In this document: in pieces, positions 10,513 to 36,392 of the stretch
How positions within the stretch are numbered: the first letter of the stretch is position 1
Layout of the letters: each line of letters opens with the position of its first letter
Origin: Candidatus Brocadiaceae bacterium
Lineage (GTDB): Bacteria; Planctomycetota; Brocadiia; SM23-32
Assembly: GCA_003551565.1 (NCBI GenBank)
Contig: PUMZ01000165.1
Span: 1-44,660 of the forward strand
Reading direction: 5' to 3'
DNA: 44,660 bases
Made by a program: the position numbers and the translations under genes
The notes under the pieces: model-generated
Database searches by the model: none
Told to the model about the DNA's origin: nothing
The model's input: only the letters and a program-made list of their open reading frames with translations

Positions 10513-10612
10513 GCCCCCCCTTTGTTGCTGTCCGGCATGAGGCAGGGGCCGGAACCACAGGCAGGCACGACAGGTTTTGCGTTTGTTCACTTTTTTTGGA
10601 GGATTTCAAGAT

Positions 10613-12733
10613 ATGTTCAGTAACATGAAGTTGTCAACAAAGTTGATTGCGGCGTTCTGCGGCGTAGCCCTCATCACCCTGATCGTGGGAATCATAGGTT
10701 TTTACGGGATCGGCCAGCTTGATGACAGGATCGAGGAGGTCGGGCAGGTGAGGCTGCCGAGCGTCCAGAACCTTCTGATTGTCGATCGGGAGTCCGATGT
10801 GTTCACGGGGATTGTCAATGCGCTTGCCAACCCTGAACTGACGTTTCAGGAGCGCAGGGAGCTGTATGATACGGTGGACGAATCACGCCGCATCTATGGC
10901 GAGGCGTGGGATATCTACGAGCCCCTGCCGCAAACCGACGAAGAGGCGCGCGTGTGGGATGATTTCGTCGACGCGTGGGATGCGTGGGTGGAGGTGAATA
11001 ACCGGTATTTTGAACTGAACCGGGAAATCGATGATATCGGCATCGGCAATCCGACCGCGTTGCTGTGGAATCTGGAACAGTTCCGGGCGGACCACTACCA
11101 GTTAGAGGTCGATGTGCTGGAGCTGATCCAGAGCGGCGAACGGTTTTCCGGGGGCGACTGCCATCGCACCTGCCGGTTCGGTCGGTGGCTGGCGGACTAC
11201 CGCACGGACAACCGGGATATCCAGCGGCTTCTGAATGCGATGGAAGTTCCCCACCAGCGGTTTCATGAGTCCGTCATTCCGATTCGGGAAGCCGTGGAGG
11301 CGGGGGATGCGGACGAAGCCATGCGCATCTATACGGAGGATATGGACCAGGCAGCGGACCAGGTTTTCGGCCTGTTCAATGACCTGATCGAGATCGCCGA
11401 AGAGTCGGAACAACTCCGCGCGCAGGCGGTGGCGCTCCTGACCGATGAGGTTATACCGAGAATGGACAACGCCAAAGGGTATTTGGGCAGACTGGTGGCA
11501 ATAAATGAAGATGTAGCGGCCGAGGAGGTCCGGGCCGCCGCCGCGCAGGCCAACCGTCTGTCGGCCGTCAGCCTGTTCGTGGCGCTAATCGGTGTGATCG
11601 CAGCGCTGGTTTTGGGATTCATGATCACCGGCGCCATCTCCAGGCCGCTCCAGCGCATTATCGACGGGCTCCGCGACGGCGCTTCACAGGTGACATCCGC
11701 TTCGGAACAGGTCGCCCAGTCGAGTCAGCAGCTGGCCGAAGGAGCCAGCGAGCAGGCGTCGAGCCTGGAGGAGACGTCGGCGGCGCTGGAGGAAATGACG
11801 TCCCAGACGACCGAAAATTCCTCGAATGCTAAAGAAGCGGCCAGCCTGTCTGAAAGCAATGAAGAAAGCGGCCAGCAGGCCACTGCAACGGCGGCTCAGG
11901 TCAATGAAGAAGCGACAACCGGACAGAAATCGGCGCAGAACCTGTCCGAGGCGATAACGGAGATACAGGAGTCCTCCGAAGCGACGGCCAAGGTGATAAA
12001 AACCATCGAAGAGATCGCGTTCCAGACGAATCTTCTCGCTCTGAACGCCGCCGTTGAAGCCGCCCGCGCCGGTGAAGCCGGCAAGGGGTTTGCCGTGGTG
12101 GCCGAGGAAGTGCGCAGCCTTGCACAGCGCTGTGCGGAAGCGGCCAAAAACACGTCCGACCTCATCGAGTCGTCACGCAACAGCGCCGAAAAGGGCGTGA
12201 ACGTCTCGAAAGAAGTTGTCGAGGGCGTCAACACGATAGCCGAGCAAATCGAAAAACTCAACCAGATCAATGCGGAGGTCGCCGCTGCGGACAAAGAACT
12301 TGGCGGACTGATCCAGCAGATCAGCACGGCAAGCGAAGAACAGGCCAGCGGCATCCAGCAGGTCAACACGGCCACAGCGGAGATGGACAAGGTGACCCAG
12401 CAGAACGCCGCCAATGCGGAAGAGTCGGCCTCCGCCGCGGAAGAACTGAGCGGTCAGGCCGAGCAGATGATGGAGATGGTGGACCAGCTGGTCCGTATGG
12501 TTGAAGGCGCAAAAGCCGGCTCCGGTTCGGCCGGCTACCGCAAAACCGCTGCGCATTCGCAGCGCAATGCCAATGCGGGCCGGCGTCAGGTGGGTGCGCA
12601 ACGGCACAGGCAGCTCACCGGGGGCAAAGGCCAAAGTGCAGGCCTTCGCGAAACCGGCGGGCAGAAAGAGCAGGAAGTCAACCCCGATCAGGTCCTGCCG
12701 CTCGATGACGACGAGGACCTGGGAGACTTCTGA
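10613..12733 (+). CDS. mcp: Methyl-accepting chemotaxis protein with periplasmic 4HB/CZB-like sensor
   Basis: GGAGGA RBS before ATG 10613. Two TM segments ([23 protein letters not shown]; [27 protein letters not shown]). HAMP domain. Signalling hairpin [44 protein letters not shown]-type H...CxFGxW...HxxxH motif lies between the TMs. Confidence 0.93.
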
Positions 12734-14858: not shown

Positions 14859-17800
14859 ATGAACAAAAAAAAGAATAGTTCCCGACGTCATACCAGTCTC
14901 AGAAGAGATATCTTCAAAAGTAACTTCGCCTTTTCTTTAATCCTCATCGCTTTATTCGGAACGTTTCTTGCCGGGGTTCTGTATCGCTCCGAAATGTCGA
15001 GGATGCATTCGTCTCTGAAAAAAACCAACCAGGCTGTGGTGATTTTCATTGAAGGCTACTTCAATGAAATCATCAACACCGTATCCATATTGGAATCAAA
15101 TGATTATATCAGGGAAGCAATGGGAGGGGGGGAATATGAACACCTGAGGATACTGGATATCTACAGATCCTTTGCGGAGGCCAATGAAAATATAAGATAC
15201 ATCTATTCCGGCTATGAAAATCGCTTAATGCTTATTGACAAAAAGGCATGGGAAGAGCCGGAAGGCTTTGATCCGAGAATAAGGCCGTGGTATGAAAAGG
15301 CGATGGAAGCGAGGCCGGGGATGTCGATCGGTCTGCCATATCAGGAAATCAACGACAGAGAATGGCTGATCTCCACCAGCCAGGCGCTTCGCTCCGAAGA
15401 TGGAAGCTATGCCGGCGTTGTAGCTGTCGATTGCTCGATCGCCGAGATAGCACGTCTTTTGCGGCAGTCTGCGGGTTTTGAAACGGCCTACAGTTACGTG
15501 GTCGGACAGGATGGCGAGATTATTCTGCATCATAGAGAAAGTTTGTTAGGTGATACGGTTCCTGAAATAAAAAGCGCTCTGCAAACCGGTCAATCCGGGA
15601 GTTTTACTTATCCCTTCGAAGATGCGGTAAAGTATGCCTATTACAGGACCGCTCCCTCGACGGGCTGGCAGGTCGTTACTGCGGTGGAACGAAATGAAAT
15701 TCTCCTGCCAATACTATGGCGTGTCATCGGCCTCATCGCCATTATCTGCATCCTGGCTGTCGTTTCAGGCATTTTCCTGAGCACCTTGATGAGCAGGCGT
15801 GTGTGTTCTCCCCTGAGGGCCCTGAGCAGCAAAGTTCAGGCGATCGTTGACGGCGACGAATATCAGGAAGATCCTGATGCGTATCCCGAGAATGAAATCG
15901 GGACAATGGCCCGTAATATCGGCCGGCTGGCTTCCAGTGAACTTCTTCACAGGAACGTCAAACTGCAGGAAAGCAGGGCGCATCTCACGGCCATCCTGCG
16001 CTCGATCGGCGACGGCGTCATCGCCTGCGACCAGGAGGAACGTGTCATCAGCCTCAATTGCATGGCCGAAACGCTCACCGGCTGGAACAGCTCTGAAGCA
16101 AATGGGCGGACCCTCGATGACGTCTTTCACATCGTCAACGCCAAAACCCGCGAAAAAACCGAGAACCCGGTGAAACGCTCCCTCAAAGAAGGCAAGGTCG
16201 TCGGACTGGCCAACCATACCATGCTGATCGCCCGGGACGGCGCCGAACGCCAGATCGCCGACTCCTGCTCGCCCATCAGGGATGCCGACGGAAAAGTCAC
16301 CGGCGCCGTGCTGGTCTTCCGGGACGTCACCGAGGAATACCGGCGTCGGGAGGAAATGCGCCTCAATACATTCGTTCTTGATCAGATTCAGGACGGGGTG
16401 ACGGTGACCGACCTGAACGGCACGATCACGTATGTCAATGACGCCGAAGCCCGGAAACAGGGCCGTTCCAAAGACGAACTGGTCGGGTGTCCGACAGAAA
16501 TATATGGTGAGAATCCCGAACAGGGGGCCACGCAGCGCGAGATAGTGGAAGAGACGCTGAAGAACGGCCGGTGGCGTGGAGAAGTCGTTAACCGGGGGGC
16601 CGATGGCGAAGAATATGTCATGGATTGCCGGACGCAGGTGATACTGGACGAGCAGGGCGACCCTGCGAAGCTTGCGGGAATCGCGACTGACATCACCGAA
16701 CGTAAGCGGATTGAGACTGAAATCAAACGCGCCCGGGATCAATATCAATCGCTGGTCGACAACATTCCCGGCATCACCTACCGCTGCAAGCTGGACAGGG
16801 ATTGGACCATGCTCTTCATGAGCGATGCGGTCGATCCGCTGAGCGGCTTCCCTGCCAGCGATTTCATCAACAACGCCGTGCGCACCTACGGGAGCGTTAT
16901 CCATCCGGACGATACGGATTATGTCGCGGAGAGCATCCATGCGGCCGTTGCCGAAGGGCGGTCGTGGGATATCGAATACCGTATCCGTCACAAGGATGGC
17001 GGCATCCGCTGGGTTCATGAAAAAGGCCGCGGGGTCCCCGGGGAGGACGGCGGCATTGCGCACCTCGACGGCTTCATCCTGGATATCACCAAACGCAAAC
17101 GGGCGGAAGAGGAGCTTCAGCGCAATTACCGGCTCCAGAAGATCATATCAGGATTATCTTCCCGGTTCGTCAAAACCATCCATGAGAGTTACGACGCCGA
17201 TATCAACGATATGCTGGCGCAGCTCGGCCGGCACTCCGGGGCGGGCCGCACTTACCTGTTCCAGTTCTCCGATGACCTGGAGACCATGACCAACACGCAC
17301 GAGTGGTGCGGCGAGGGCGCGGAACCTCAGATAAAAAGGATCCATGATCAGCCGGTCGACTCGGTGCCCTGGTTCATGGAGCGGATACTTGCCGGCAATC
17401 CTGTGCATGTCCACGATGTCGCGGCTCTGCCCGATGAAGCCGGTATGGAGCAGGCGGAATGGGCCGCCCAGGACATCCGATCGCTCATCACCGTTCCGGT
17501 CCGGATACCCGGCAGAGTGTGGGGTTTTGTGGGCATTGACGCCGTCGGAGAGAAATACAGCTGGAGCGAAAACGAGGTACATAATCTGGAGGTGATCGCC
17601 AACCTCATCGGCGATTTGCTGCAGAGGTTGCGGTCGGAAGTATATCTTCGGGAAACCAACCTCCAGCTTGAGGCCGCCACCGTCCGCGCCAACGAGCTGG
17701 CCGTTCAGGCCGAGGCCGCCAGCCTGGCCAAAAGCCGGTTCCTCAGCAACATGAGCCACGAAATCCGCACGCCCCTTAACGGGGTGATCGGCTTCACCGA

Positions 17801-19368: not shown

Positions 19369-19604
19369 GTGCTTTATTGCCCGTTTATTTCTCGCGTTCT
19401 TTGTGGTGCAGATGCGGCAGAAAGCAAACGCCTGTGAAATCTGCAGGTAGCGCCGTCAGAGCATCATTAACTGTTTGTTTTTCGGCCGTTGGATTCGTTT
19501 TTGGAACGTTGCATTGTGTCCGCTCCGTCGGAACAGGGCCGGCGGGAAAACAGGACAACGCGGTCCCCTGAAAATTGTAACCCCATCAGGAGGTGTTTGA
19601 TGCG

Positions 19605-19964
19605 ATGAAATTACTGATCGTCGATGATTCCAGGGCCATGCGGCTCATCATCAAAAAGACGTTAAGGCGTGCCGGAGTGAAGCCAACAGAGACTGTTGAA
19701 GCTGAAAACGGTGCACAGGCGCTGGAGCTGTGTCAGCAGGGCCCGCCGGATCTGATCTTATGCGACTGGCACATGCCGGAGATGTCCGGTATCGACTTGC
19801 TCCGTGCGCTGAGAAAAGAGGGTATAACTACCGATTTCGGGTTCATCACCTCCGAGAGCACCGATGATATGCGGGAGATGGCAAAGGAGGAAGGAGCCGC
19901 ATTCCTTCTGGCCAAGCCGTTCACTCCCGACGCCCTCTCCGATGCACTGAGCGCTGTCTTGTGA
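19605..19964 (+). CDS. cheY: CheY-like single-domain response regulator
   Basis: AGGAGG RBS. MKLLIVDDSRAMR, LILCDWHMPEMSG, FITSES and LAKPF together give a complete receiver. Confidence 0.9.
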   Translation: MKLLIVDDSRAMRLIIKKTLRRAGVKPTETVEAENGAQALELCQQGPPDLILCDWHMPEMSGIDLLRALRKEGITTDFGFITSESTDDMREMAKEEGAAFLLAKPFTPDALSDALSAVL

Positions 19965-20049
19965 AGGTGTTTGCAGCAGACGGGTTGGCTTGTGGCAGGT
20001 AAATTGTGGATGTACACGTGAACAGAACAGGGTCATTTCGGAGGTGAAA

Positions 20050-20568
20050 GTGAACGGAAACGTGGCGACAGATGCAGGGGAAATTCTTGATCTGGCGGTT
20101 CAGTGTGCGATCGAGGCGTGCGGTACACAGTTTGAATTGCCGCTCGGAGTGGCAGGGGAACCCAGGAGGCCGGATGTCGGGCTTGCGCACTGCGGCGGAG
20201 CCATATCTTTTATCGATGACAACACCGGTTTTAACCTGCTGCTTATGGGAAACCGGGCGTATGGTCACGAAGTCACACGGGCGATGTTTATGCTTGAGCC
20301 GGACGAGGAAGTGGCCGAAGATGATATGGCCGATGCGATCGGCGAGTTCGTTAATATCGTGGCGGGAATGCTGAAGCGCAAACTTGCCGACCGGGAGTAT
20401 GCGGTCAGGATCGGGCTGCCGATGTTTGTCAGAGGCAGCGGATGTATTGAGTATTTTGCCGAGGGTGTCCTGGGAGCCGCCATCACACTGGAGGGCGGTT
20501 CGGGTATGCGAATGCAGCCGGTGATTATTTGGAAGGGGAATTGCAATGATACAGTCTTTACCGAATGA
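20050..20568 (+). CDS. cheX: CheX-like CheY-P phosphatase
   Basis: DAIGEFVNIVAGMLK...LP fits the CheC/CheX/FliY signature D-x3-E-x2-N followed about 21 residues later by P. GGAGG lies before GTG 20050. The ORF-track start at 19990 is upstream and in frame. Confidence 0.72.
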   Translation: MNGNVATDAGEILDLAVQCAIEACGTQFELPLGVAGEPRRPDVGLAHCGGAISFIDDNTGFNLLLMGNRAYGHEVTRAMFMLEPDEEVAEDDMADAIGEFVNIVAGMLKRKLADREYAVRIGLPMFVRGSGCIEYFAEGVLGAAITLEGGSGMRMQPVIIWKGNCNDTVFTE

Positions 20569-21025
20569 AAACGATATAATCCGTGTGTTGAAAGGCATCA
20601 CCGATTTTCAGGCGAATTTTGATGCGTCGGACGAACCGATGGATATCGACGGCTCGGAGTTTGCAGTCTATGTCTCCATGCTGTCCACCGGTGAAGGGGA
20701 AGTTGTCGGGGCGATGGCGGCCAATGCCCCGGCCGCATGCATGTTCGGGGGGGGGTTGGTTATGCTCCCGGAGAATTCACTGAAGGAAATGATCGAGGAA
20801 AACGACCTGTCGGAAGTCGTTATCGACGGCCTGTCGGAAGTCTTCAACATGCTGCGCAGGACGATCAACGCGGAGCCGAAAAATCCGCATGTCGAGCACG
20901 GCCGGGTGCATCTGTTCGGCGATGGCGGCGGGGACGAGGAATGGGTGAAAAACCCTTCAAAGTCCATCAAACTGGCCGGCGATTCGTCCCTCGGGAAAGC
21001 GGAATTTGCCATGGTGGGAAAGTAA
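20546..21025 (+). CDS. Second CheX/CheC-like protein (divergent)
   Basis: 159 aa with DGLSEVFNML (D-x3-E-x2-N) but no Pro at the expected distance. GGAAGGGG RBS. It overlaps the preceding gene by 23 nt. Confidence 0.5.
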   Translation: MIQSLPNENDIIRVLKGITDFQANFDASDEPMDIDGSEFAVYVSMLSTGEGEVVGAMAANAPAACMFGGGLVMLPENSLKEMIEENDLSEVVIDGLSEVFNMLRRTINAEPKNPHVEHGRVHLFGDGGGDEEWVKNPSKSIKLAGDSSLGKAEFAMVGK

Positions 21026-21193: not shown

Positions 21194-23443
21194 TTGGATA
21201 ATGCCATGGCCGAAAAAAACATATTGGATGTGCTCAATGCTCTCACAACGGAATTGTTAAGTTTTTCCCCGTCCGATGAAGGCGATATGCGGCAGGTCCG
21301 CGAGCGTTTGGATACGCTGGGGAAATGGGCCGGCAGCGATAATGCCGTGCTTGCCGGGGCCATCGATGACGCCCGGGCGGCGCTTTCATCGATGCACGAC
21401 AGCGAGGAGCCCGAGGAACTGCTGCAGACGGTTGCGGAGCTTGTGGGGGAGTTGCGCGATGCCGTTGAAAAGGGGGCGTCACCGGAAGACATCGATGTGA
21501 GGACGGAGTGCTTCAACAGCGCCGGCACAGAGAGCGGGGGCGCTGACGATGCGGATGGCGACGATGCGGACGATTGCGGAGACGGGGAGATTCCCGAGGG
21601 GTTGCTGATGCTTCTGGACGATCCCGAAACCGCCGGAGAGTTTCTGCAGGAATCCGAAGAGCATCTGCTCAAAGCCGAGCTTGCCCTGATGGAGCTTGAA
21701 AAAAACAGCGAAGATTCCGAATCGGTCAATGTTGCTTTCAGGGCGTTCCATACGATAAAGGGGCTGGCGGGGTTTTTCGAACTCGACCAGGTCCGGACAT
21801 TGTCGCACAGCACTGAAAATTTGATGGACGAAATCCGGAGCGGGAAGGCGCAAATGGACGAACATAATGCCGAGGTGGTCCTGAGATCGGTCAGTACTCT
21901 GGAAGAGATGCTGCACCATATACGGGAGGCGGTCGGCAACCAGACGGCGGTCAGGAAGCATCCGGAGTACGACCGGCTGCTGGGGGACATCGCGGCGGCC
22001 ATGGAACGGGAACCGGTGGCGGCGGGCGGAACGCATGCGCAGGACAATACCGCCGAAACCGGGGACGATGGTGGAACGAACGCGGCCGGGGAGTCCGGGT
22101 CCGGGGAACGTACCGACAAAAAAGCGGAGGGTGAAGGTAGGGAGGCCGGCCCGGGAGGAGCTGCGACCGAAGAACCAGCGACGGCATCCGCCGCACCTGA
22201 GCCGGTTGCGCCGGAGTCCGGTAGAACGTCTTCCGGAACCCGGGCCGCCAAACCGGGGGGGGCCGGGCAAAAGGCGGTCAAGGAAATGGTCCGGGTCGAT
22301 GCGGGGAGGCTGGACCGGTTGATTGAAGTGATCGGCGAGATGGTGATCGCGGAATCGATGGTCAGCCGGAAACAGCAGGAGGCCGGAGGCGCCTCCAGCC
22401 TGGAATTCGAACGCGAAATGGACCGGCTGGATAAGATAACCCGCGAGTTGCAGGAAATCGGCATGTCGCTGCGGATGATACCGATCAAGCCGCTTTTCCA
22501 GAGGATGATAAGACTTGTGCGGGATGTCGCACGTGAAAACGGGAAAAAAGTCGACCTGGAACTTTTGGGCGAAGAAACGGAGCTTGACAAATCTGTCGTG
22601 GATCAGCTGTCCGATCCGTTCGTTCACCTCATCCGCAATGCCGTGGACCACGGCATTGAGGCGCCGGAGGTGCGATCTGCGAGCGGAAAACCGGAGACGG
22701 GGCATATTGAGCTGAGGGCGTTCCATCGGGGAGGAAATATATTTATTGAGATCGAAGACGATGGCGCCGGACTGGACAGGGAAAAAATACTGGCCAAAGC
22801 CCGCGAAAAAGGACTTGTGGGCGAAGAATCCGATAAAATGGATGATAAAGATGTTTACAGTCTGATATTCGAACCCGGATTTTCCACAAAAACCCAGGTG
22901 AGCGACCTGAGTGGCCGCGGCGTGGGGATGGATGTTGTGCGCAGGAACGTTGAAGCGATCCGCGGGCAGATCGATGTGCGTTCCGGGCCGGCAGCCGGCA
23001 CGGTGATCAGTATTCGCCTGCCGCTCACTCTCGCGATCATCGATGGTATGGTGGTGCGCGTGGGGGAAGAACGGTATGTTATCCCCACGCTTTCCATCGT
23101 CCAGACTCTCAGGCCGGAAAAGGACTCAGTCAAGCATGTGCGGGGGCAGGGTGATATGGTCGATTTCCAGGGCAGCCTCTCGCCGATCTTCTGGCTTGGA
23201 GAAATGCTTGGGGGCGAGGGGGAGGCGGAAGAAGCGTCGGAATCCGTCATCGTGATGGTTGACGACGACGGGAAAAGAGTGGGCTTTGTGGTTGATGAGC
23301 TGCTCGGACAGCAACAGATCGTGATCAAGTCCCTGGGCAAAGGCATAGGTGAACTGAAAGGGATCGCCGGCGCCGCCATCATGCCGGACGGCAAGGTGGG
23401 GTTGATACTGGACGTGAACGGGCTTATAAAGCTTGCCGGCTAA
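21194..23443 (+). CDS. cheA: Chemotaxis histidine kinase CheA (no recognisable P2 domain, no C-terminal receiver)
   Basis: Hpt H-box AFRAFHTIKGLAGFF. Dimerisation region MVRVDAGRLDRLIEVIGEMVI. Kinase boxes DPFVHLIRNAVDHGIE and GRGVGMDVV. CheW-like P5 (IIDGMVVRVGEERYVIP). Confidence 0.93.
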   Translation: MDNAMAEKNILDVLNALTTELLSFSPSDEGDMRQVRERLDTLGKWAGSDNAVLAGAIDDARAALSSMHDSEEPEELLQTVAELVGELRDAVEKGASPEDIDVRTECFNSAGTESGGADDADGDDADDCGDGEIPEGLLMLLDDPETAGEFLQESEEHLLKAELALMELEKNSEDSESVNVAFRAFHTIKGLAGFFELDQVRTLSHSTENLMDEIRSGKAQMDEHNAEVVLRSVSTLEEMLHHIREAVGNQTAVRKHPEYDRLLGDIAAAMEREPVAAGGTHAQDNTAETGDDGGTNAAGESGSGERTDKKAEGEGREAGPGGAATEEPATASAAPEPVAPESGRTSSGTRAAKPGGAGQKAVKEMVRVDAGRLDRLIEVIGEMVIAESMVSRKQQEAGGASSLEFEREMDRLDKITRELQEIGMSLRMIPIKPLFQRMIRLVRDVARENGKKVDLELLGEETELDKSVVDQLSDPFVHLIRNAVDHGIEAPEVRSASGKPETGHIELRAFHRGGNIFIEIEDDGAGLDREKILAKAREKGLVGEESDKMDDKDVYSLIFEPGFSTKTQVSDLSGRGVGMDVVRRNVEAIRGQIDVRSGPAAGTVISIRLPLTLAIIDGMVVRVGEERYVIPTLSIVQTLRPEKDSVKHVRGQGDMVDFQGSLSPIFWLGEMLGGEGEAEEASESVIVMVDDDGKRVGFVVDELLGQQQIVIKSLGKGIGELKGIAGAAIMPDGKVGLILDVNGLIKLAG

Positions 23444-23604
23444 AGCGCTTATTTACGCGTTTTCGGTGGTTCATATGCGCCGGAAAACACATGCTGCCTG
23501 TGAAAAATGTTGTGCCGTTCAGGAAGTCCTTAATATTTTTCTGACTGTGTGCCTTAAAGCGGTGGCGAGTGCTCGCGTCAACTGTTCTTTTGATCTTGGT
23601 CAAC

Positions 23605-26600
23605 ATGCAAAAATATCACCCCATGGAATCAGGTTTTCAAAGTGAGAGCAAACAGTGGGAGATCACGTTGCGCTCCATTGGCGATGCGGTAATTGTGACT
23701 GATGGTGCGGGCAGGGTCAAGCTCCTGAATCCGGTCGCAGAAAAGATGACCGGTTGGGAGAGCACCGAAGCGTGCGGGAAAAAGCTCGCACAGGTGTTCA
23801 ATATAGTCAATGCCAGGACCCGGGAAAAAGCTTTCGACCCTGTCAAAACAGCGCTGGAAGAAGGGACGGTGGTCGGTCTGGCCAACCATACGGTGCTGAT
23901 TTCCCGCAACGGCGCGGAATACCAGATCGAAGACAGTTGCGCGCCCGTGAAAAACGCTGCCGGAGAGATCCAGGGAGCCGTTCTGGTTTTCCGCGACGTG
24001 ACAGAACTTTACCAGCAGCGCCGCCGGCTGGAAGAAAACGAGGTTTTTTTGCGGACCACGCTGGATGCACTGAACCAGCCCTTTGCCGTGATAAACCCCG
24101 AAAGCTATACGGTCGATATGGCCAACGAAGCTTATGGCGGGCGGCAATCGGTGGGGAAAAAATGCTACAGTGTCTCGCATCAACAAGACTCCCCCTGTGG
24201 GGGAGCCGCTCATCGGTGTCCGGTGGAAGAAGTCGTACAAACGGGGCGGCCGGTTGTGGTAGAGCACGTTCATCGTTATCAGGATGGGACTCCTCAATAC
24301 GTGAACGTGTATGCCCATCCCATCTTCGACGACGATCAGCGGGTCCGGCAGGTGATCGAACACGTGGTGGATGTGACCGAACGCAGACGGGCGGAGGAGC
24401 GACTGCAGGAGAGCGAACAACGGTTCCGCAGTTATTTTGACAATGCCCCCTACGGCATCTTTCTTTCTGACGATAAAGGCGTTTACATTGACGTTAATCC
24501 CGCCGCCGTGGCGATAACGGGTTACGCGAAGACGGATTTGATCGGGAAAAACATCGAGTCGATCCTTGCGCCCGGTGACAGGGACAGGGGGTTGCGCCAT
24601 TTTCGCACGGTGGCTGAAACGGGAGGGGCCGATGGGGTGTTCGGGTTTGTTACCGCCGATGGTGAGCGTGCCGATCTCCGTGTCAAAGCGGTCCGCCTGT
24701 CGGATGAGCAGTTCATAGGCTTTACGGAAAATGTCACGGACCGGAAACGGAAGGAGGATCAGCTCAACCGCTTTCGTCTGGCACTGGATAACAGTCCCGA
24801 TCAGGTTTTTCTGATCGATCCTGACCGGATGCGGTTTCTGGATGTCAATGCAACCGCATGCAGGGATTTGGGATTCAGCAGGGAGGAGCTGCTGGCGATG
24901 GGACCCCATGATATCAAGCCGCGCTACACCCGGGAGTCCCTCCGGGCTGAATTGGAACGCATCGCTTCGCTGGACAACTCTTACGGGGTGGTCAGCACCG
25001 TTCATCGGGGAAAGAGCGGAAGAGAGATTCCGGTGGAAGTGCGAATTCAGGCGCTGGAATCATCAGGCTCCAGGACGGTTGTCGCTATCGCCCGGGATAT
25101 TTCCGAACGCATCAAGGCCGAGCAGCGTTCCCGTGAATCCAAGAAAAGGCTGGAATCATCCAACCGGCAGCTCTATAAGTCAATACGCCATGCCAATGAA
25201 ATGGCCCATCAGGCGGAAGTTGCCAGCCAGGCGAAAAGCCAGTTCCTTGCCAACATGAGCCACGAAATCCGCACGCCGATGAACGGCATTATCGGTATGA
25301 CCGGCCTGTTGCTGGAGTCGGATTTGAATGAAGAGCAGCAGGATATGGCCGATGTTATCCGCACCTGTGCCGATTCTCTTCTGCACCTCATCAACGATAT
25401 CCTGGATTTTTCCAAAATTGAGGCCGGCAAGCTGAAGATCGATGAAGTGGATTTTAACCTGCGCACCATGGTCGAGGAAATCTCCGATGTTATGGCAGTG
25501 GGTGCGGCCAAAAAGGACCTGACTTTTTCCGTGCGGGTTGCACCGGATGTGCCGTCGGCCTTGCGTGGAGACCCGGCCAGGTTGCGGCAGGTCCTCATGA
25601 ACCTCGCCAACAATGCGATCAAGTTCACCGAACACGGCGAAGTGATCGTGAATATCGAACCGGAGTCCGAAACGGAACGCGACGTTGTGCTGCTTTTTCA
25701 GATAAAAGACACCGGGATCGGTATCCCGGAGGAGAAGATGGACATCCTTTTCAATGCGTTTGAGCAGGTTGACGATTCAAACACACGCGAGTTTGAGGGG
25801 AGCGGCCTGGGGCTTGCCATCTCCAAAAAGTTGACGGAAATGATGGGGGGGGAAATAATTGCCGAAAGTGTTGAAGACGCCGGATCGACCTTTACTTTTA
25901 CCGCTCAACTCAAAAAACAACATGGCGATAAACAGAGGCTTGCTGATACGGAACCTCCGGACGATATCCGGGGCAAAAAAATGCTGATCGTCTGCGACAA
26001 CGGTATCAATCGGCGCGTTATGAGTGAGTTTTTGACGTCCTTTCAGATGCGCCATGACGAAGTGGATAACGCTGAGGATGCCCTGGCCGCTGTCGAAAAA
26101 GCCTCTCGCGAAGGCGATCCATACGATATCGTGACCATTGATATGCACGACCCCGGGGCCGGCCGGACGCTGGGGGCGGCGCTGAGGGAAAACGGCGGCT
26201 GCGCCAGTTTGCGTTTGGTGCTGGTGACTGCGATGCGGGAGCGGGGAACAGATTGTCTCCTCAGAGAAAACGTATTTGATGGCCGCATCAACAAGCCTAT
26301 TAAAAAAGATCAATTCTTCGATCAACTGAAAACGTTGCTGGGCACTGAAACGACCGATCGGCGCTGCGAAGAGCCGTTGTCGCCGGATGAACCCTGCCGA
26401 AGCGGAGAATCGAAAAAGGGGCCGTTGAAGGTGCTGCTTGTTGAGGACAATGAGATCAATCGGAAGGTGGCGGTTCGCATCCTGCAAAGGATCGGCCTCG
26501 ATGCCGATGCCGTGGCCAATGGTCAGGAGGCTCTGCTGACGTTGAATGACCGGCCCTACGATCTTGTTCTTATGGACGTGCAGATGCCGGTTATGGACGG

Positions 26601-27219
26601 GCTGGAAGCGGCACATCGGATCAGGCGCGGCGAGACGGCGGCAACGCCGCCGGATGTACCCATCATTGCTATGACCGCTCATGCCATGGAGGGCGACAGA
26701 GAGGATTGCTTCGATGCCGGGATGGATGACTATGTGGCCAAACCGGTCGAAATGGCATCGCTGCGGGAGGCGATAACAAGGATAACGGAGAAATCGGGAC
26801 GTCCGGGTTGCGCAGTGGGGGATCGGAAGGAGGCGGACGATGCGCTTTTCCTCCCAAACGATCTGGAGAGGCGTGTGGGTGACGTGGAACTCGGACGGGA
26901 ACTGCTGGAGATGTTTATGGAGGAGGCGCCGAAAAAGCTTGTTCAGATAGATGTTCTTATTGAGGGCGGCAAGCCCGCCGAAGCCGCAAAGCGGCTCCAC
27001 GCTCTCAAAGGATCGGCATTGAATCTCGGATGCATTGCCCTGGCCGAGGAAGCGGCGAAAATGGAGCGTGCGATGCAGGACGCCGTGGAGGGCAATGAAG
27101 AGTTCCGGGCGGCTATGGATTCACTGAACGCTACGTACAAAAAAACTGCCGCAATGGTTGCGGACTACGTGCGGGGCGACAGGGAGGGGGCCGGGCGTGA
27201 CGACCAGACTCCGGCCTGA
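23605..27219 (+). CDS. Cytoplasmic hybrid histidine kinase (PAS x4 - HisKA - HATPase - REC - REC - Hpt)
   Basis: H-box [19 protein letters not shown] box LMNLANNAIKFT. Receivers (MLIVCDNG...VTIDMHDP...NKPI; VLLVEDNE...LVLMDVQMP...AKPV). C-terminal Hpt (LHALKGSALNLG). The start is uncertain: GTG 23569, ATG 23605 or ATG 23623. No good RBS is visible. Confidence 0.9.
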   Translation: MQKYHPMESGFQSESKQWEITLRSIGDAVIVTDGAGRVKLLNPVAEKMTGWESTEACGKKLAQVFNIVNARTREKAFDPVKTALEEGTVVGLANHTVLISRNGAEYQIEDSCAPVKNAAGEIQGAVLVFRDVTELYQQRRRLEENEVFLRTTLDALNQPFAVINPESYTVDMANEAYGGRQSVGKKCYSVSHQQDSPCGGAAHRCPVEEVVQTGRPVVVEHVHRYQDGTPQYVNVYAHPIFDDDQRVRQVIEHVVDVTERRRAEERLQESEQRFRSYFDNAPYGIFLSDDKGVYIDVNPAAVAITGYAKTDLIGKNIESILAPGDRDRGLRHFRTVAETGGADGVFGFVTADGERADLRVKAVRLSDEQFIGFTENVTDRKRKEDQLNRFRLALDNSPDQVFLIDPDRMRFLDVNATACRDLGFSREELLAMGPHDIKPRYTRESLRAELERIASLDNSYGVVSTVHRGKSGREIPVEVRIQALESSGSRTVVAIARDISERIKAEQRSRESKKRLESSNRQLYKSIRHANEMAHQAEVASQAKSQFLANMSHEIRTPMNGIIGMTGLLLESDLNEEQQDMADVIRTCADSLLHLINDILDFSKIEAGKLKIDEVDFNLRTMVEEISDVMAVGAAKKDLTFSVRVAPDVPSALRGDPARLRQVLMNLANNAIKFTEHGEVIVNIEPESETERDVVLLFQIKDTGIGIPEEKMDILFNAFEQVDDSNTREFEGSGLGLAISKKLTEMMGGEIIAESVEDAGSTFTFTAQLKKQHGDKQRLADTEPPDDIRGKKMLIVCDNGINRRVMSEFLTSFQMRHDEVDNAEDALAAVEKASREGDPYDIVTIDMHDPGAGRTLGAALRENGGCASLRLVLVTAMRERGTDCLLRENVFDGRINKPIKKDQFFDQLKTLLGTETTDRRCEEPLSPDEPCRSGESKKGPLKVLLVEDNEINRKVAVRILQRIGLDADAVANGQEALLTLNDRPYDLVLMDVQMPVMDGLEAAHRIRRGETAATPPDVPIIAMTAHAMEGDREDCFDAGMDDYVAKPVEMASLREAITRITEKSGRPGCAVGDRKEADDALFLPNDLERRVGDVELGRELLEMFMEEAPKKLVQIDVLIEGGKPAEAAKRLHALKGSALNLGCIALAEEAAKMERAMQDAVEGNEEFRAAMDSLNATYKKTAAMVADYVRGDREGAGRDDQTPA

Positions 27220-27630
27220 ACCGGGCCCTTTTTCTGCTGCAGGAATCCGTGGCCCGCACGAATTCGCACAGTTTTTTGCGCCCCTGGTTGATTTTCGTTA
27301 CGTTTATCCTGGTTTGATGTTATGCGTTAATGCTCTTTGTTTTATTGCGCCGGATATCCCGTACGGAGGTAGAATATTGCAGGTAACTGCTCGGTGAACT
27401 ACGTCAATTCATCCCCACCGTGCCCTGTGCCGGTGGGGAAACTACGGGGTTCACCGAATACTTACAGTTACGGCATGGTGCAGGGTCCCATGATTCAGAA
27501 GACGTGTTCCATGGGTTTGTGGTGAAGGCGCTATGGTTGGGAAATGTTCCGGAGCCTGTTTGTCGGTGAGCCTCCGTGGGCGCCGTTCGGCTTTGGAACG
27601 GCGTATCACCAACCAATTCGCTGAAAGCCG

Positions 27631-28197
27631 ATGTGGTTGAAGGACTACCGACGTTTGATCCGGCATGCGGGGAACAGCAGGATGTATAACGATACCCATG
27701 TGGCTACTTGCGGAGATTATTTTTTGAGTCCCGGCTATATCTACACTCCTGTCCAATCGACAGTCATATCGCTGGTATTGGGTTCGGCGGTCGCTGTCTG
27801 CTTGTATGACAGGAAGAGGCGGGTGGCGGGTATCAATCATTTTCAGTATCCCTACAGCGAGACCCCCCGGCATGGCACTGCAAGGCATGGTGATGCCGCG
27901 ACCCTGACGCTGATCAACATGATGTTGAGCGCCGGCGCCAAACGCCGTCACCTGCGTGCCCAGGTGTTCGGTGGTGCTTACCGCCCGGATCTTTGCAGCC
28001 GGGATGTCGGGCGTGAAAACATCCTGGTGGCCAAAAATTTGCTCCGCCAAAAGGGGATCAAAACCGCATCGGAGGATGTGGGCGGCGAGCTCGGTCGCAA
28101 GGTTGTTTATAAAACGGCCGGCAATGAAGTGGCCGTATTGAAGGTGGAACGGCTCCGCAGCGACGACTGGTATCCATACGAAGGTTGCCGCAGCTGA
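27631..28197 (+). CDS. CheD-family protein lacking the catalytic cysteine
   Basis: LGSAVAVCLYD...GINHFQYP...AQVFGGA...DVGRENI...EDVGGELGRKV matches the CheD layout. The GSC nucleophile position reads GSA. Met18 (27682) is an alternative start. Confidence 0.8.
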   Translation: MWLKDYRRLIRHAGNSRMYNDTHVATCGDYFLSPGYIYTPVQSTVISLVLGSAVAVCLYDRKRRVAGINHFQYPYSETPRHGTARHGDAATLTLINMMLSAGAKRRHLRAQVFGGAYRPDLCSRDVGRENILVAKNLLRQKGIKTASEDVGGELGRKVVYKTAGNEVAVLKVERLRSDDWYPYEGCRS

Positions 28198-28365
28198 CCT
28201 TTCCCGGTCCGCGGGTGGGGAGAGGGGGAGTCTTCAGTCCGGAAAACGGTGCTTGCGGTATGGTCCCGCATAAGAACAGGCATGGGTGACTGGATACGGA
28301 CCCGGACGGGGTTCAACCGTGCATACTGTTTCTACTCCCCATCGTTTTTTGAGAGAGAATAACAT

Positions 28366-29184
28366 ATGGTTGAACTTTCCGATGATGTATTTTATACGGT
28401 AAGGGACATAATATATCATCAGGCGGGCATCCACCTGACCGAACGCAAGCGTGCGCTTGTTACGGCGCGCCTGAGTAAGAGGTTGCGTTTCCTCGGGTTC
28501 AGTGATTATGGTAAGTATTTGGACTATGTCATCTCCGATCAGTCCGGCACAGAGCTCGCCGAACTGATCGACGCCATTGCCACCAACGTGACGTCTTTCT
28601 TCCGTGAGCGCGAACATTTTTGCCTGATGGATTCCTTTTACAGGGCGTGGTATGACGAAGGCCAGAGGAGGTTCCGTTTATGGTCGGCTGCATGTTCGAC
28701 CGGAGAAGAACCCTATTCCATGGCCATCACGCTGCAGGAGAGCGGGCGGCTTCAGGGGGCCGACGTTAAAATCCTGGCGACCGATATCAGTTCAAAGGTT
28801 ATGCGGATTGCAAAGGAGGGCGTTTATTCCGCCGGCAAGCTGGAAACCGTCTCCCAACCGGTTTTGAATGCTTATTTCCGGAAAACAGGGACGAAGAAAG
28901 ATGTTGAAGAGTACCAGGTGCAACAGGTGCTCAAGGACATGATACTGTACCGGCGTTTGAACCTTGCGGCTCCGCCGTTCAAATTGAAAGGACCACTGGA
29001 CATGATCTTTTGCCGCAATGTCATGATCTACTTCGAACGGCGGACACGCTGTCGCCTGGTGGAGGAGTTTGGACGTCTGCTGAGACCGGGAGGGTATCTT
29101 TTTGTCGGACATGCTGAATCGCTGACGGGACTCGGTGTGAAAAGTTTGAAACCTTTTGGTGTTTCCGTTTACAAAAAAGCTTGA
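28366..29184 (+). CDS. cheR: Chemotaxis methyltransferase CheR
   Basis: TNVTSFFREREHF, RLWSAACSTGEEPYSMAI, ILATDIS, IFCRNVMIYF and GGYLFVGHAE. Confidence 0.93.
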   Translation: MVELSDDVFYTVRDIIYHQAGIHLTERKRALVTARLSKRLRFLGFSDYGKYLDYVISDQSGTELAELIDAIATNVTSFFREREHFCLMDSFYRAWYDEGQRRFRLWSAACSTGEEPYSMAITLQESGRLQGADVKILATDISSKVMRIAKEGVYSAGKLETVSQPVLNAYFRKTGTKKDVEEYQVQQVLKDMILYRRLNLAAPPFKLKGPLDMIFCRNVMIYFERRTRCRLVEEFGRLLRPGGYLFVGHAESLTGLGVKSLKPFGVSVYKKA

Positions 29185-29243
29185 TGCAAATGAGTTAACT
29201 TGTGGGCACAAAAACACAATTTCATGGCGTGCCGGGCGTCCGG

Positions 29244-29717
29244 ATGGTCGCGGTGGGCATAGGGGAGATGGCCGTATCAGATGACCCGTCGGAGGTCTTG
29301 ATCACGTATTCGTTGGGGTCCTGTATCGGTGTGAGCATGTACGATCCGGCAGTTAAAATCGGCGGTCTTATCCACTGCATGTTGCCTTTGAGCAAGGTGA
29401 ACCGCGATAAGGCCCGGCAGCAGCCGGCCATGTTCGTCGATACAGGGATTGTCGAATTGCTGCGGGAAATGTATAAGCTGGGCGCCACCTCCGGAAACGT
29501 GATCGCCAAAGTGGCGGGCGGCGCGGCGGTGCTGGACAAAAAAGAGCTCTTTCGGATAGGCAAGAGGAATCTGACCGTTTTGCGAAAAATTTTATGGAAA
29601 AACAACATTTTGCTGGAAGCGGAGGATGTCGGAGGAGCCAGGCCGCGCACTTTGCACCTGGAGATCAAAACCGGCTCCACGGTTGTGAAGTCCCGTGGTA
29701 CAGGAAAAAGACTGTAG
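29244..29717 (+). CDS. cheD: Chemoreceptor glutamine deamidase CheD (canonical active site)
   Basis: MVAVGIGEMAV...SLGSCIGVSMYD...GGLIHCMLP...AKVAGGA...IGKRNL...EDVGGARPR. My recollection of T. maritima CheD is that it starts MKKVIGIGEYAV, which supports ATG 29244. GTG 29202 is upstream and in frame. Confidence 0.88.
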   Translation: MVAVGIGEMAVSDDPSEVLITYSLGSCIGVSMYDPAVKIGGLIHCMLPLSKVNRDKARQQPAMFVDTGIVELLREMYKLGATSGNVIAKVAGGAAVLDKKELFRIGKRNLTVLRKILWKNNILLEAEDVGGARPRTLHLEIKTGSTVVKSRGTGKRL

Positions 29718-29765
29718 TCCATGTTTTCGGTGTGTATTGCCTCTGAATTGCAGGAAGGGTACGAT

Positions 29766-30142
29766 ATGAGCACTAAAATCCTTGTTGTGGATGACTCCCC
29801 CCTTGTCCGGAAAATGGTCGGGAAGACCATTCAACTCAGCCATCTGGAAAATCCGGACGTGTACGAAGCCGGAAACGGCAGAGAGGCCCTGGATATTCTG
29901 GACAGCGACCATATGGATCTCGTTATATCGGATATACATATGCCGCAGATGGGCGGGGAGGAGCTGATCGCAGCCATCCGCAAATCCACAAAGTATGCCG
30001 ATCTGCCCGTGATGATACTCAGCTCCGAGGGCAGTGAAGCGATGGTGAAGAAGCTGAAAGCGCAGGGGATAAAATTGTTCGTGCAGAAACCATTTACTCC
30101 CGAATCTCTCCGTGATGCGATCGAATCGTTTGATTTTCTGGT

Positions 30143-30146
<4 letters not shown>
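29766..30146 (+). CDS. cheY: CheY-like single-domain response regulator
   Basis: MSTKILVVDDSPLVRK, LVISDIHMPQMGG, ILSSEG and VQKPF. Confidence 0.9.
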
Positions 30147-31673
<1,527 letters not shown>

Positions 31674-34630: not shown

Positions 34631-35260
34631 ATGCCGTTGGGGACCACAAAAAAAACAGGGAGATTGCGGGACGCCATCCTTCTTGCCGCCGCAGCAATGC
34701 TTTCCCTTTCCACCTGCGCCGTCGCCGGCAGCCTCTGGGCGCGCAGGGACGAAAGGGCCGGCAACCTTTTCCAGGATAACGTGGCGGCCCGGAAGGGCGA
34801 TACGCTCACCGTGATGATATCGGAAGAGAGTTCGTTTGCCAGAGAGGGACGACGCGACAGCAACAAAAGCACGTCCTCCAGCGCTTCGGCCGGTCTGCAA
34901 ACCACACTGGACAACACCGACGATTTCTCCGGCGCGGTGTCCCACTCCTCCGACCGTGAATTCCACGGCTCCGACAGGCGTTCCGGCAACCGCCAATTCG
35001 TCGACAGCATCACGGTAACGGTCATTGATGTTCTGCCCAACGGGAACATGGTTCTGGCCGGGCGCAGCGAGCGGCACATAGCGGATGAGGAGGTTACCAC
35101 GATTCTTTCGGGGATCGTACGGCCCACGGATATTTCCGGAGAAAACGCCGTTGCATCCACCGACATCGCCAACCTGCAGGTGTATTACGAAACCAAAGAT
35201 ACAGCCTACGTGCGGGACGGCTGGTTGAGCACGCTGTTCAACCTTGTATGGCCGTTCTGA
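34631..35260 (+). CDS. flgH: Flagellar L-ring lipoprotein FlgH
   Basis: GGGAGG RBS. Lipobox LSLSTC. SLWARRDERAGNLFQDNVAARKGDTLTVMISE. Confidence 0.9.
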   Translation: MPLGTTKKTGRLRDAILLAAAAMLSLSTCAVAGSLWARRDERAGNLFQDNVAARKGDTLTVMISEESSFAREGRRDSNKSTSSSASAGLQTTLDNTDDFSGAVSHSSDREFHGSDRRSGNRQFVDSITVTVIDVLPNGNMVLAGRSERHIADEEVTTILSGIVRPTDISGENAVASTDIANLQVYYETKDTAYVRDGWLSTLFNLVWPF

Positions 35261-35273
35261 GGAGATCGATATC

Positions 35274-36392
35274 ATGAACAGAACAATGGTCACCAGCTTT
35301 GTCGTTATGTCCCTGGTTCTTCTGGCAGCGGCCGCTCCAACCCATGGCAGCGGGGCACGCATAAAAGATATAACTTCGGTGCGGGGGATACGGTCCAATC
35401 AGCTCTATGGGGTGGGACTTGTGGTGGGGCTCGACGGCACCGGCGCCGGAAGCAATGCGGCCGCCGAAATGGCCGCAGGCATGATGGGCCGCCTCCGGGG
35501 CCGGCACCTCTCCGAGCTCGATGCCGACAACATCGCCGTGGTGATGGTCACCGCCGATCTGCCGGCCTTTGCCGAACCCGGGGACGTTATCGACGTAACG
35601 GTCAATGCGCTCGACGAGGCGGGAAGCCTTCGCGGAGGCACGCTGGTGCTGACTCCCCTTGCGGGAGCGGACGGCGAGGTGTATGCTGTGGCCCAGGGGC
35701 CGGTGGCCGTGGGTGGGTTCGCGGTGGAAGGCGCAGCTGCCAGCGTGACCGAAGGCGTCCCCACGGTGGGGCGCATCCCGGGAGGAGCGACTGTGGAGCG
35801 TAAGGTCGAGATGGCATTTACGGGAAAAGACGAAGTGGTTTTTGCGCTGCATAATCCCGATTTTGCAACCGCTGCAAGGATCGCCGACGCGATCGAAGCC
35901 CGGCTCCGCCTGGAAACAAATATCGCCAACCCCGCAACCGTTGAAGTTTCCATCAGCGATCTGTATGGCAATAACGAGAGAATGCGCACAATCAGCGAGA
36001 TCCAGATGCTGAGGGTGGTCCCCGACAGCAAAGCGGTGGTGGTGATCAATGAACGCACCGGCACGGTGGTGGCGGGCAGGAGCATCGGCATATCCACCAT
36101 AGCTGTAAGCCACGGACCGCTCACAGTTGTGGTGGAGGAGCTGCCGGAGGTGTTTATGCCGCCGCCCTTCAGCGATGCAGATCCGGAAACCGTCGACCGC
36201 ACCGAAATATCCGTGCTGGAACGCACGCTGCCGGACCAGGAGAGCGGACTCACCGTCCTCAACAGGGGCACCACGGTTGAAGAGGTGGCCCGGGCGCTGA
36301 ACCTGCTGGGCGCCGGGCCAAGGGAGCTGATCAGCATTTTCGAAGCCATCAACGAGGCAGGAGCACTCCATGCAGAACTCAGGATTATGTAA
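35274..36392 (+). CDS. flgI: Flagellar P-ring protein FlgI
   Basis: Signal peptide, then RIKDITSVRGIRSNQLYGVGLVVGLDGTGA. The C-terminus reads ELISIFEAINEAGALHAEL. Confidence 0.93.
   Translation: MNRTMVTSFVVMSLVLLAAAAPTHGSGARIKDITSVRGIRSNQLYGVGLVVGLDGTGAGSNAAAEMAAGMMGRLRGRHLSELDADNIAVVMVTADLPAFAEPGDVIDVTVNALDEAGSLRGGTLVLTPLAGADGEVYAVAQGPVAVGGFAVEGAAASVTEGVPTVGRIPGGATVERKVEMAFTGKDEVVFALHNPDFATAARIADAIEARLRLETNIANPATVEVSISDLYGNNERMRTISEIQMLRVVPDSKAVVVINERTGTVVAGRSIGISTIAVSHGPLTVVVEELPEVFMPPPFSDADPETVDRTEISVLERTLPDQESGLTVLNRGTTVEEVARALNLLGAGPRELISIFEAINEAGALHAELRIM

Follow-up and report, generated by a model that had tools for sequence, protein, structure and literature searches.

A tail-bearing CheD paralog with alanine at the nucleophile position, probably a non-catalytic binding protein, beside a canonical CheD in a planctomycete chemosensory cluster

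CheD proteins are treated and annotated as one enzyme family, under the name 'chemoreceptor glutamine deamidase'. A chemosensory and flagellar gene cluster on contig PUMZ01000165.1 of a Candidatus Brocadiaceae bacterium (Planctomycetota; GenBank assembly GCA_003551565.1) encodes two members of this family, with cheR between the two genes. Positions 1 to 44,660 of the contig are referred to here as the window, the features of which are collected in Table 1. An earlier note, made from the letters of this DNA alone, had proposed the two flanking paralogs; both open reading frames (ORFs) were found and both products pass the Pfam threshold. The canonical gene lies about 1 kb past the other one, and no further CheD gene is present in this metagenome-assembled genome (MAG), which is 88% complete. 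The product of the upstream gene has alanine in place of the catalytic cysteine. It is not an isolated mutant of an ordinary CheD but a member of a distinct and widespread CheD clade that has a C-terminal tail and in which catalytic residues were lost repeatedly. It is probably a maintained, non-catalytic paralog whose function is to bind other proteins, with receptors or CheX-type phosphatases as the most likely partners.

Table 1. Features of the chemosensory cluster in the window, by position.
Feature	Position	Strand	Remarks
Methyl-accepting chemotaxis protein (MCP)	10577-12733	+	
CheY	19593-19964	+	
CheX	19990-20568	+	
159-aa ORF between CheX and CheA	20546-21025	+	Overlaps the CheX stop
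CheA with CheW domain	21194-23443	+	
Hybrid histidine kinase	23569-27219	+	
Terminator-like hairpin and T-run	27213..27235	+	Hairpin 27213-27227; at the end of the hybrid kinase gene; consensus scan only
Tail-bearing CheD paralog	27682..28197	+	171 amino acids (aa); ORF open from ATG 27631 (27631-28197, 188 aa)
Tail motif RSDDWYPY	28156..28179	+	Clade consensus R-x-G-D-W-Y-P-Y
cheR	28366..29184	+	CheR_N and CheR methyltransferase domains
Canonical CheD, Thr/Cys/His intact	29244..29717	+	ORF open from GTG 29202; Cys codon 29322-29324
CheY-type single-domain response regulator	29721..30146	+	
CheX-family CheY-P phosphatase	30143..30613	+	Candidate partner of either CheD
cheB (REC and methylesterase)	30636..31673	+	ORF open from 30483; likely start Met52
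FlgI	35244-36392		

Both CheD reading frames can be opened at more than one codon. The start of the downstream gene given in the earlier note, 29244, was judged likelier than the GTG at 29202. The note's start for the upstream gene, 27631, was replaced by the ATG at 27682 as the likely true start, because in the homologs, which are about 170 aa long, 11 residues precede a shared (N/D)YFLxPGY motif. Residue numbers of the upstream protein nevertheless follow the 188-aa frame unless stated otherwise.

The upstream protein is a homolog and a structural member of the CheD family (PF03975; CNF1/YfiH-like fold). Against PF03975, with a gathering score of 25, the upstream protein scores 67.8 bits and the downstream one 100.9 bits; the upstream match spans residues 80-169, and the model leaves the Cys/His region uncovered. 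The active-site columns were read from phmmer alignments to T. maritima CheD in the PDB (2f9z_C, in which the chain numbering equals the paper numbering plus 2). The catalytic triad of T. maritima CheD is Cys27/His44/Thr21, and in NTAN1, which has the same fold, the triad residue is Ser (PMC7022378). In the upstream protein, Ser47, Ala53, and His70 fall on Thr21, Cys27, and His44, with no gaps in the active-site region, and their codons lie on the + strand at 27769-27771, 27787-27789 (GCG), and 27838-27840, respectively. In the downstream protein, Thr35, Cys41, and His58 occupy the same columns, likewise ungapped. The other cysteine that might have been placed at the nucleophile column, Cys57 of the VAVC motif, pairs with T. 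maritima Cys31, four residues further on in the same strand, so that the alanine assignment stands. An AlphaFold2 (AF2) model of the upstream protein, built with 44 homologs, is confident (predicted local distance difference test, pLDDT, 90.5; predicted template modelling score, pTM, 0.86), and its top Foldseek match is 2f9z_C (template modelling score 0.75/0.83, root-mean-square deviation 2.0 A, 29% identity, E 2.4e-13), followed by YfiH proteins. The column assignment thus holds both against the sequence of 2f9z_C and by fold. What the earlier note had read from the letters, namely, the full triad downstream and, upstream, Ala for Cys and Ser for Thr with the His and the FGGA, GRENI, and DVGGELGRK signatures kept, was borne out in every part.

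Of the residues that define the functional class, the upstream protein thus keeps the His and has a conservative Ser for Thr, and the nucleophile is gone. Because the nucleophile is Ala, the protein would be incapable of Cys-dependent deamidation, and because this defining catalytic feature is missing, it should be neither classified nor annotated as a chemoreceptor glutamine deamidase. It also falls below every cut-off of the nine NCBIfam CheD equivalog models (best NF010013, 114.8 vs 223 bits); this criterion is weak by itself, as the canonical CheD downstream scores under the cut-offs too (141 vs 240). It is exceedingly unlikely that the alanine is a sequencing or assembly artefact. The MAG is fragmented, with 416 contigs and 6.5% contamination, but GCG is at least two substitutions away from TGY, so that a single base-call error would not suffice, and the same loss is found independently in many other assemblies, complete genomes included. 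Sequencing error was rejected on this codon distance and this recurrence.

A scan with one genome per species gave 365 stretches encoding a relative of the query, of which the best 80 loci were analysed; together with the window they form a set of 81 members. The homologs are about 170 aa long and come from Desulfobacterales, Desulfatiglandales, and Syntrophales, from MAGs as well as isolates; carriers in culture include Desulfatibacillum alkenivorans (L032), Desulfonema magnum (L049), and Desulfospira joergensenii (L017). Two marks that are missing in T. maritima CheD and in the downstream paralog set them apart, namely, the N-terminal (N/D)YFLxPGY motif and a C-terminal extension of 16 residues whose consensus is VERLRxGDWYPYExxR. 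The upstream protein of the window carries both, as DYFLSPGY and RSDDWYPY. All 81 members of this close subclade share the R, D, W, P, and Y of the tail; in the wider clade the conserved tail core is R-x-x-D-W only. The tail is predicted to be ordered (AF2 pLDDT 84-93 over this stretch) and is not covered by any Pfam or NCBIfam model. None of the tail-bearing proteins compared (that of the window and ten others) reaches any of the nine NCBIfam CheD cut-offs (best 122 vs 223 bits), and their matches stop before the DW motif. A profile of the clade separates its members (>240 bits) from the ordinary CheDs at the same loci (55-75 bits); the window protein scores 256.9 bits, the downstream paralog 74.5.

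In a survey of 300 genomes of the window's own phylum, tail-bearing CheDs were also found (L118-L125, L131, and L142); the residue at their nucleophile column is Ser, Cys, or Gly, and their tails include forms like R-x-Y-D-W-F-K-P. The clade therefore occurs in at least two phyla, Desulfobacterota and Planctomycetota. Identity of the window protein to members from Desulfobacterales is 55-60%, but to the sampled planctomycete ones only 39-43%; the best named matches of the FlgI encoded in the window are from Planctomycetota, Brocadiia. This pattern of identities hints at a transfer of the gene or the cluster between phyla, or at an undersampled lineage to which the window belongs.

Loss of the catalytic residues is not confined to the window. 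The nucleophile column of the 81 members holds Cys in 37, Ser in 35, Gly in 7, and Ala in 2, and Asn is also among the replacements (with Ser, Gly, and Ala) in the tail-bearing clade. The His column is replaced in 9/81 by Gln, Leu, Asn, Arg, Cys, or Ser, and the Thr21 column is highly variable in tail-bearing proteins. In a maximum-likelihood tree built with the nucleophile and His columns removed, at least 13 changes of nucleophile state are required, and strongly supported branches alone give at least four origins of Gly and at least two of Ala (the window and L040). A profile search of 1.84 billion representatives clustered at 50% identity returned 9,619 matches at E <=0.001, 536 of them below 1e-30. 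Among the best 150 representatives, 146 could be scored: the Cys-His dyad is missing in 38/64 tail-bearing clusters vs 7/82 tail-less ones (Fisher p = 3e-11), and several of these seven are fragments or have variant tails.

Two side observations concern these columns. In one Gly-type lineage (P0035, P0036, P0040, and L061), the His column holds Cys (GMNCF), in the place of the former general base, and the sisters L080 and L082 have Ser there. Some che operons (L009, L018, L036, L049, L067, L011, and L013) encode three CheDs. Besides the canonical CheD (ALGSCLGL) and the tail-bearing one there is a tandem paralog (ALGTSLGL), in which Ser replaces Cys and Thr replaces the Ser before it; the Cys-to-Ser change therefore also arose in a second, tail-less CheD lineage.

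A protein without the canonical nucleophile might still be an enzyme with altered chemistry, in which His70 activates water or Ser52 or Cys57 serves as the nucleophile, e.g., in the hydrolysis of glutamyl-methyl esters, an easier reaction that T. maritima CheD also carries out. The His is kept in the window protein and in 72/81 clade members, the active-site loops are conserved, Ser ranks second among the residues found at the nucleophile column, and 13/14 dead members of the close subclade have a Cys four residues on (i+4). This cysteine, however, aligns with Cys31 and not with the nucleophile, it is not enriched among dead representatives (10/28 vs 14/26), and two of the dead representatives lack Cys altogether; a shift of the nucleophile to the VAVC cysteine was rejected on these three grounds. 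As to Ser52, it is equally conserved in canonical CheD, and the planctomycete tail-bearing proteins have Asn instead. Several lineages that lack both Cys and His are moreover under strong purifying selection, which implies a conserved function that is independent of the dyad. Altered chemistry is accordingly considered unlikely.

That selection can be read from ratios of nonsynonymous to synonymous substitution (dN/dS). Pairwise values are 0.05-0.09 among L061, L080, and L082, in which the nucleophile is Gly and the His is also gone, and 0.07 for the Ala/Gly pair L040/L051, as compared with 0.06-0.23 for Cys-type pairs and 0.09-0.46 for Ser-type pairs. Judged from these sequence comparisons, the dyad-less lineages are under purifying selection. 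The Cys-His (33), Ser (35), and dead (14) groups have correlated per-column entropy profiles (r = 0.84) and equal mean entropy (1.13, 1.16, and 1.13 bits). Some 47 columns are conserved in each of the groups, including LGS-x-V, GGA, S-E-D-V-G-G, G-R-K, and the R, D, W, P, Y, and R of the tail, and the nucleophile and His columns alone are conspicuously relaxed. The earlier note had called the upstream protein 'maintained', and at the level of the clade the low dN/dS of dyad-less lineages and the equal conservation of these columns across groups support this.

For the window copy itself, the opposite has to be weighed, i.e., that it is a decaying, functionless duplicate made redundant by the canonical CheD 1 kb away. 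Its terminal branch is long (0.54, median 0.094), and two otherwise near-invariant columns deviate (Gly49 to Ala and Glu92 to Arg, in 171-aa numbering). The ORF is intact and of normal length for the family, however, about 45/47 of the clade-conserved columns are kept with the whole tail motif among them, the AF2 model is confident, and other dyad-less lineages clearly show the signature of purifying selection. The long branch can be explained by a lack of sampled close relatives, since the window comes from a different phylum than most clade members. Decay is therefore considered very unlikely.

Nearly all the genomes examined encode a canonical Cys-His CheD besides the tail-bearing one. Two or more CheD-domain genes are present in 48/50 clade-bearing genomes, the two exceptions being MAGs of 2.5-2.7 Mb. 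With the CheD genes at the loci themselves counted in, a canonical CheD accompanies the Cys-less one in 9/9 Gly/Ala-type and 25/28 Ser-type genomes examined, and in the window it is the gene that follows cheR. Partner genes from Ser- and Gly-type genomes are Thr-Cys-His in 29/31 cases (one of them Leu-Cys-His); the other two encode CheD-HDOD fusions with Gln-Cys-His.

About 41/81 loci of tail-bearing CheDs, or roughly half, lie inside or beside che operons, in several arrangements, and 19 directly adjoin cheB or cheR. At 15 loci, the tail-bearing gene comes right after cheB and closes an operon of the order CheA-CheR-CheD(TCH)-CheY-CheX-CheB, in which TCH denotes the Thr-Cys-His triad. At about 12 loci it heads the operon, as at L116 (tail-bearing CheD, CheZ-family gene, CheY, CheA, CheD(TCH), HDOD, CheY, CheX, CheB); it follows cheR at two loci and precedes it at two, the window included. 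About 40 loci lack a che gene within 8 kb. Most are of the Ser type, from the Desulfotignum, Desulfobacula, and Desulfospira group; examples are L017, which is flanked by an ABC transporter and an ABC1 kinase, and P0063, next to mutS and amiC. The orphans would fit a clade whose role lies outside chemotaxis, in the binding or modification of some other helical protein, with the position in che clusters being incidental. On the other side stand the loci in or next to che operons, and the fact that every orphan comes from a genome that has che systems and a canonical CheD at other places; it is also not unusual for che genes to be orphans, and the window's own context does not suggest such a role. 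A role outside chemotaxis is thus quite unlikely.

Fusions of CheD to other domains were seen in both phyla. L114 (230-1606) and L097, both from Desulfobacterales, encode CheD-HDOD/HD fusions of 459-471 aa with Gln-Cys-His in the triad columns, and at L116 a separate HDOD/HD gene (15193-16041) directly follows the canonical cheD; fusion and adjacency together suggest a functional link between CheD and HDOD. In Planctomycetota, proteins of about 367 aa (L126, L127 at 1480-2583, and L128) combine an N-terminal CheD with Lys-Cys-His and a weak C-terminal match to CheX (E = 5e-4). These are possible CheD-CheX fusions and as such would support a physical CheD-CheX partnership in the phylum.

The characterised CheDs listed in a 2025 review are from B. 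subtilis, T. maritima, B. burgdorferi, and P. aeruginosa (PMC12654446), and binding by CheD has precedents among them. In B. subtilis, CheD increases CheA activity and binds both receptors and CheC, and its role in chemotaxis was reported to be minor as a deamidase and major as a binding protein (PMC3513319). It is a functional precedent for the proposed binding mode, although it is a single-copy, catalytically competent protein, whereas the window appears to split catalysis and binding over two paralogs, the binding one being naturally without a nucleophile. In Borrelia, CheD forms complexes with CheX and enhances it (review PMC5318424). The window resembles that system in offering a CheX-type candidate partner instead of CheC: it contains two CheX genes, and a classical CheC gene was not recognised in it. 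T. maritima CheD shares with the upstream protein the fold, the active-site motifs, the equivalent of His44, and a hydroxyl residue at Thr21, conservatively replaced by Ser, and the window gene also lies in a che cluster; the differences are the Ala for Cys27 and the additional, conserved 16-residue tail. A further difference lies in the Met-Phe pair after GGAS, which in the work on 2F9Z and B. subtilis is reported to be at the CheC interface and which is replaced by polar residues in the window protein (GGAYRP). In 2F9Z, as Chao and colleagues reportedly described in 2006, a receptor-like helix of T. maritima CheC reaches into the active site of CheD, and CheC is stimulated by CheD. A more general likeness is to pseudoenzyme paralogs such as pseudo-deamidases and pseudo-GATs, in which a disabled paralog is kept under purifying selection beside an active one and the substrate-binding architecture is conserved.

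The conserved pocket loops suggest that the tail-bearing protein still binds a helical, receptor-like ligand. In the mechanism proposed here, it would sit on the modification-site helices of chemoreceptors and/or on a receptor-mimicking phosphatase of the CheX/CheC type, and this binding may tune the kinase output of CheA or the access of CheR, CheB, or the canonical CheD to their sites; the canonical CheD would perform the actual deamidation. As to the partner, receptor modification sites are the foremost candidate, with a chance somewhat below even, and a CheX-type phosphatase is a less probable one; the remaining probability falls to CheR, CheB, or another protein. Broader still is the idea that all tail-bearing CheDs, those with Cys included, form a separate family of non-enzymatic proteins, which either act as 'readers' of the sites at which receptors are modified or serve CheX, CheR, or CheB as adaptors, that deamidase chemistry became dispensable and was lost repeatedly in at least two phyla, and that the R-x-x-D-W(-Y-P-Y) tail is a new interaction element. 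This extension to the whole clade is tentative and rather doubtful.

The D-W-Y-P-Y of the tail bears a superficial likeness to x-W-x-x-F, the pentapeptide that serves on some receptors as a tether for CheR and CheB, and the tail might, by way of speculation, recruit methylation enzymes to receptors without the pentapeptide. The likeness is treated as speculative because the wider clade conserves only R-x-x-D-W.

Several points weigh against a maintained, purely binding role for the upstream protein. Its nearest relative is at most 60% identical and its terminal branch is the long one described above, and with synonymous divergence saturated, selection on the window copy itself is not measurable. 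With His70 and Ser52 retained, weak water-mediated or Ser-based hydrolysis (e.g., of methyl esters) is conceivable. The 35/81 members with Ser at the nucleophile might keep some activity, so that the clade is not uniformly dead, and since many Ser-type members lie far from che genes, the partner may in some lineages be something other than a chemotaxis protein. On balance, a maintained paralog that acts by binding is still held to be the probable explanation.

A natural Cys-less or pseudoenzyme CheD, or a tail-bearing clade, was not found described in the full-text literature searched, which covers searchable literature only, and the clade is thus apparently an undescribed, pseudoenzyme-type paralog clade in a well-known family. 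If the proposal is true, it would be an evolutionary confirmation of the view from B. subtilis that binding prevails over catalysis, and it would provide a ready-made separation-of-function system in which one paralog does the chemistry and the other the binding. Thousands of database entries would then probably carry the name 'deamidase' wrongly. The tail also adds a new conserved motif to chemosensory systems that have received little study, namely, those of sulfate reducers and planctomycetes.

As regards the surroundings of the two genes, the cluster holds, with the MCP, two PAS-rich hybrid histidine kinases and, after CheA, a second hybrid kinase (that of Table 1), and flgF, flgG, and other flagellar genes follow downstream of cheB. 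A non-coding gap of about 450 nt (27236-27681) separates the hybrid kinase from the tail-bearing cheD, and the terminator-like hairpin probably sets the two apart. A scan of the + strand of this gap gave no convincing sigma-70 promoter; Rfam gave nothing significant in 27100-28500, and the consensus scan showed no terminator-like site between the tail-bearing cheD and cheR. The 159-aa ORF between CheX and CheA has no Pfam match even at E = 10. At L116, the locus of the closest relative, the gene right after the tail-bearing cheD (10604-11995, followed by cheY and cheA) encodes a 463-aa protein with a CheZ-family match (PF04344), which is unusually long for a CheZ-like protein in a Desulfobacterales che operon.

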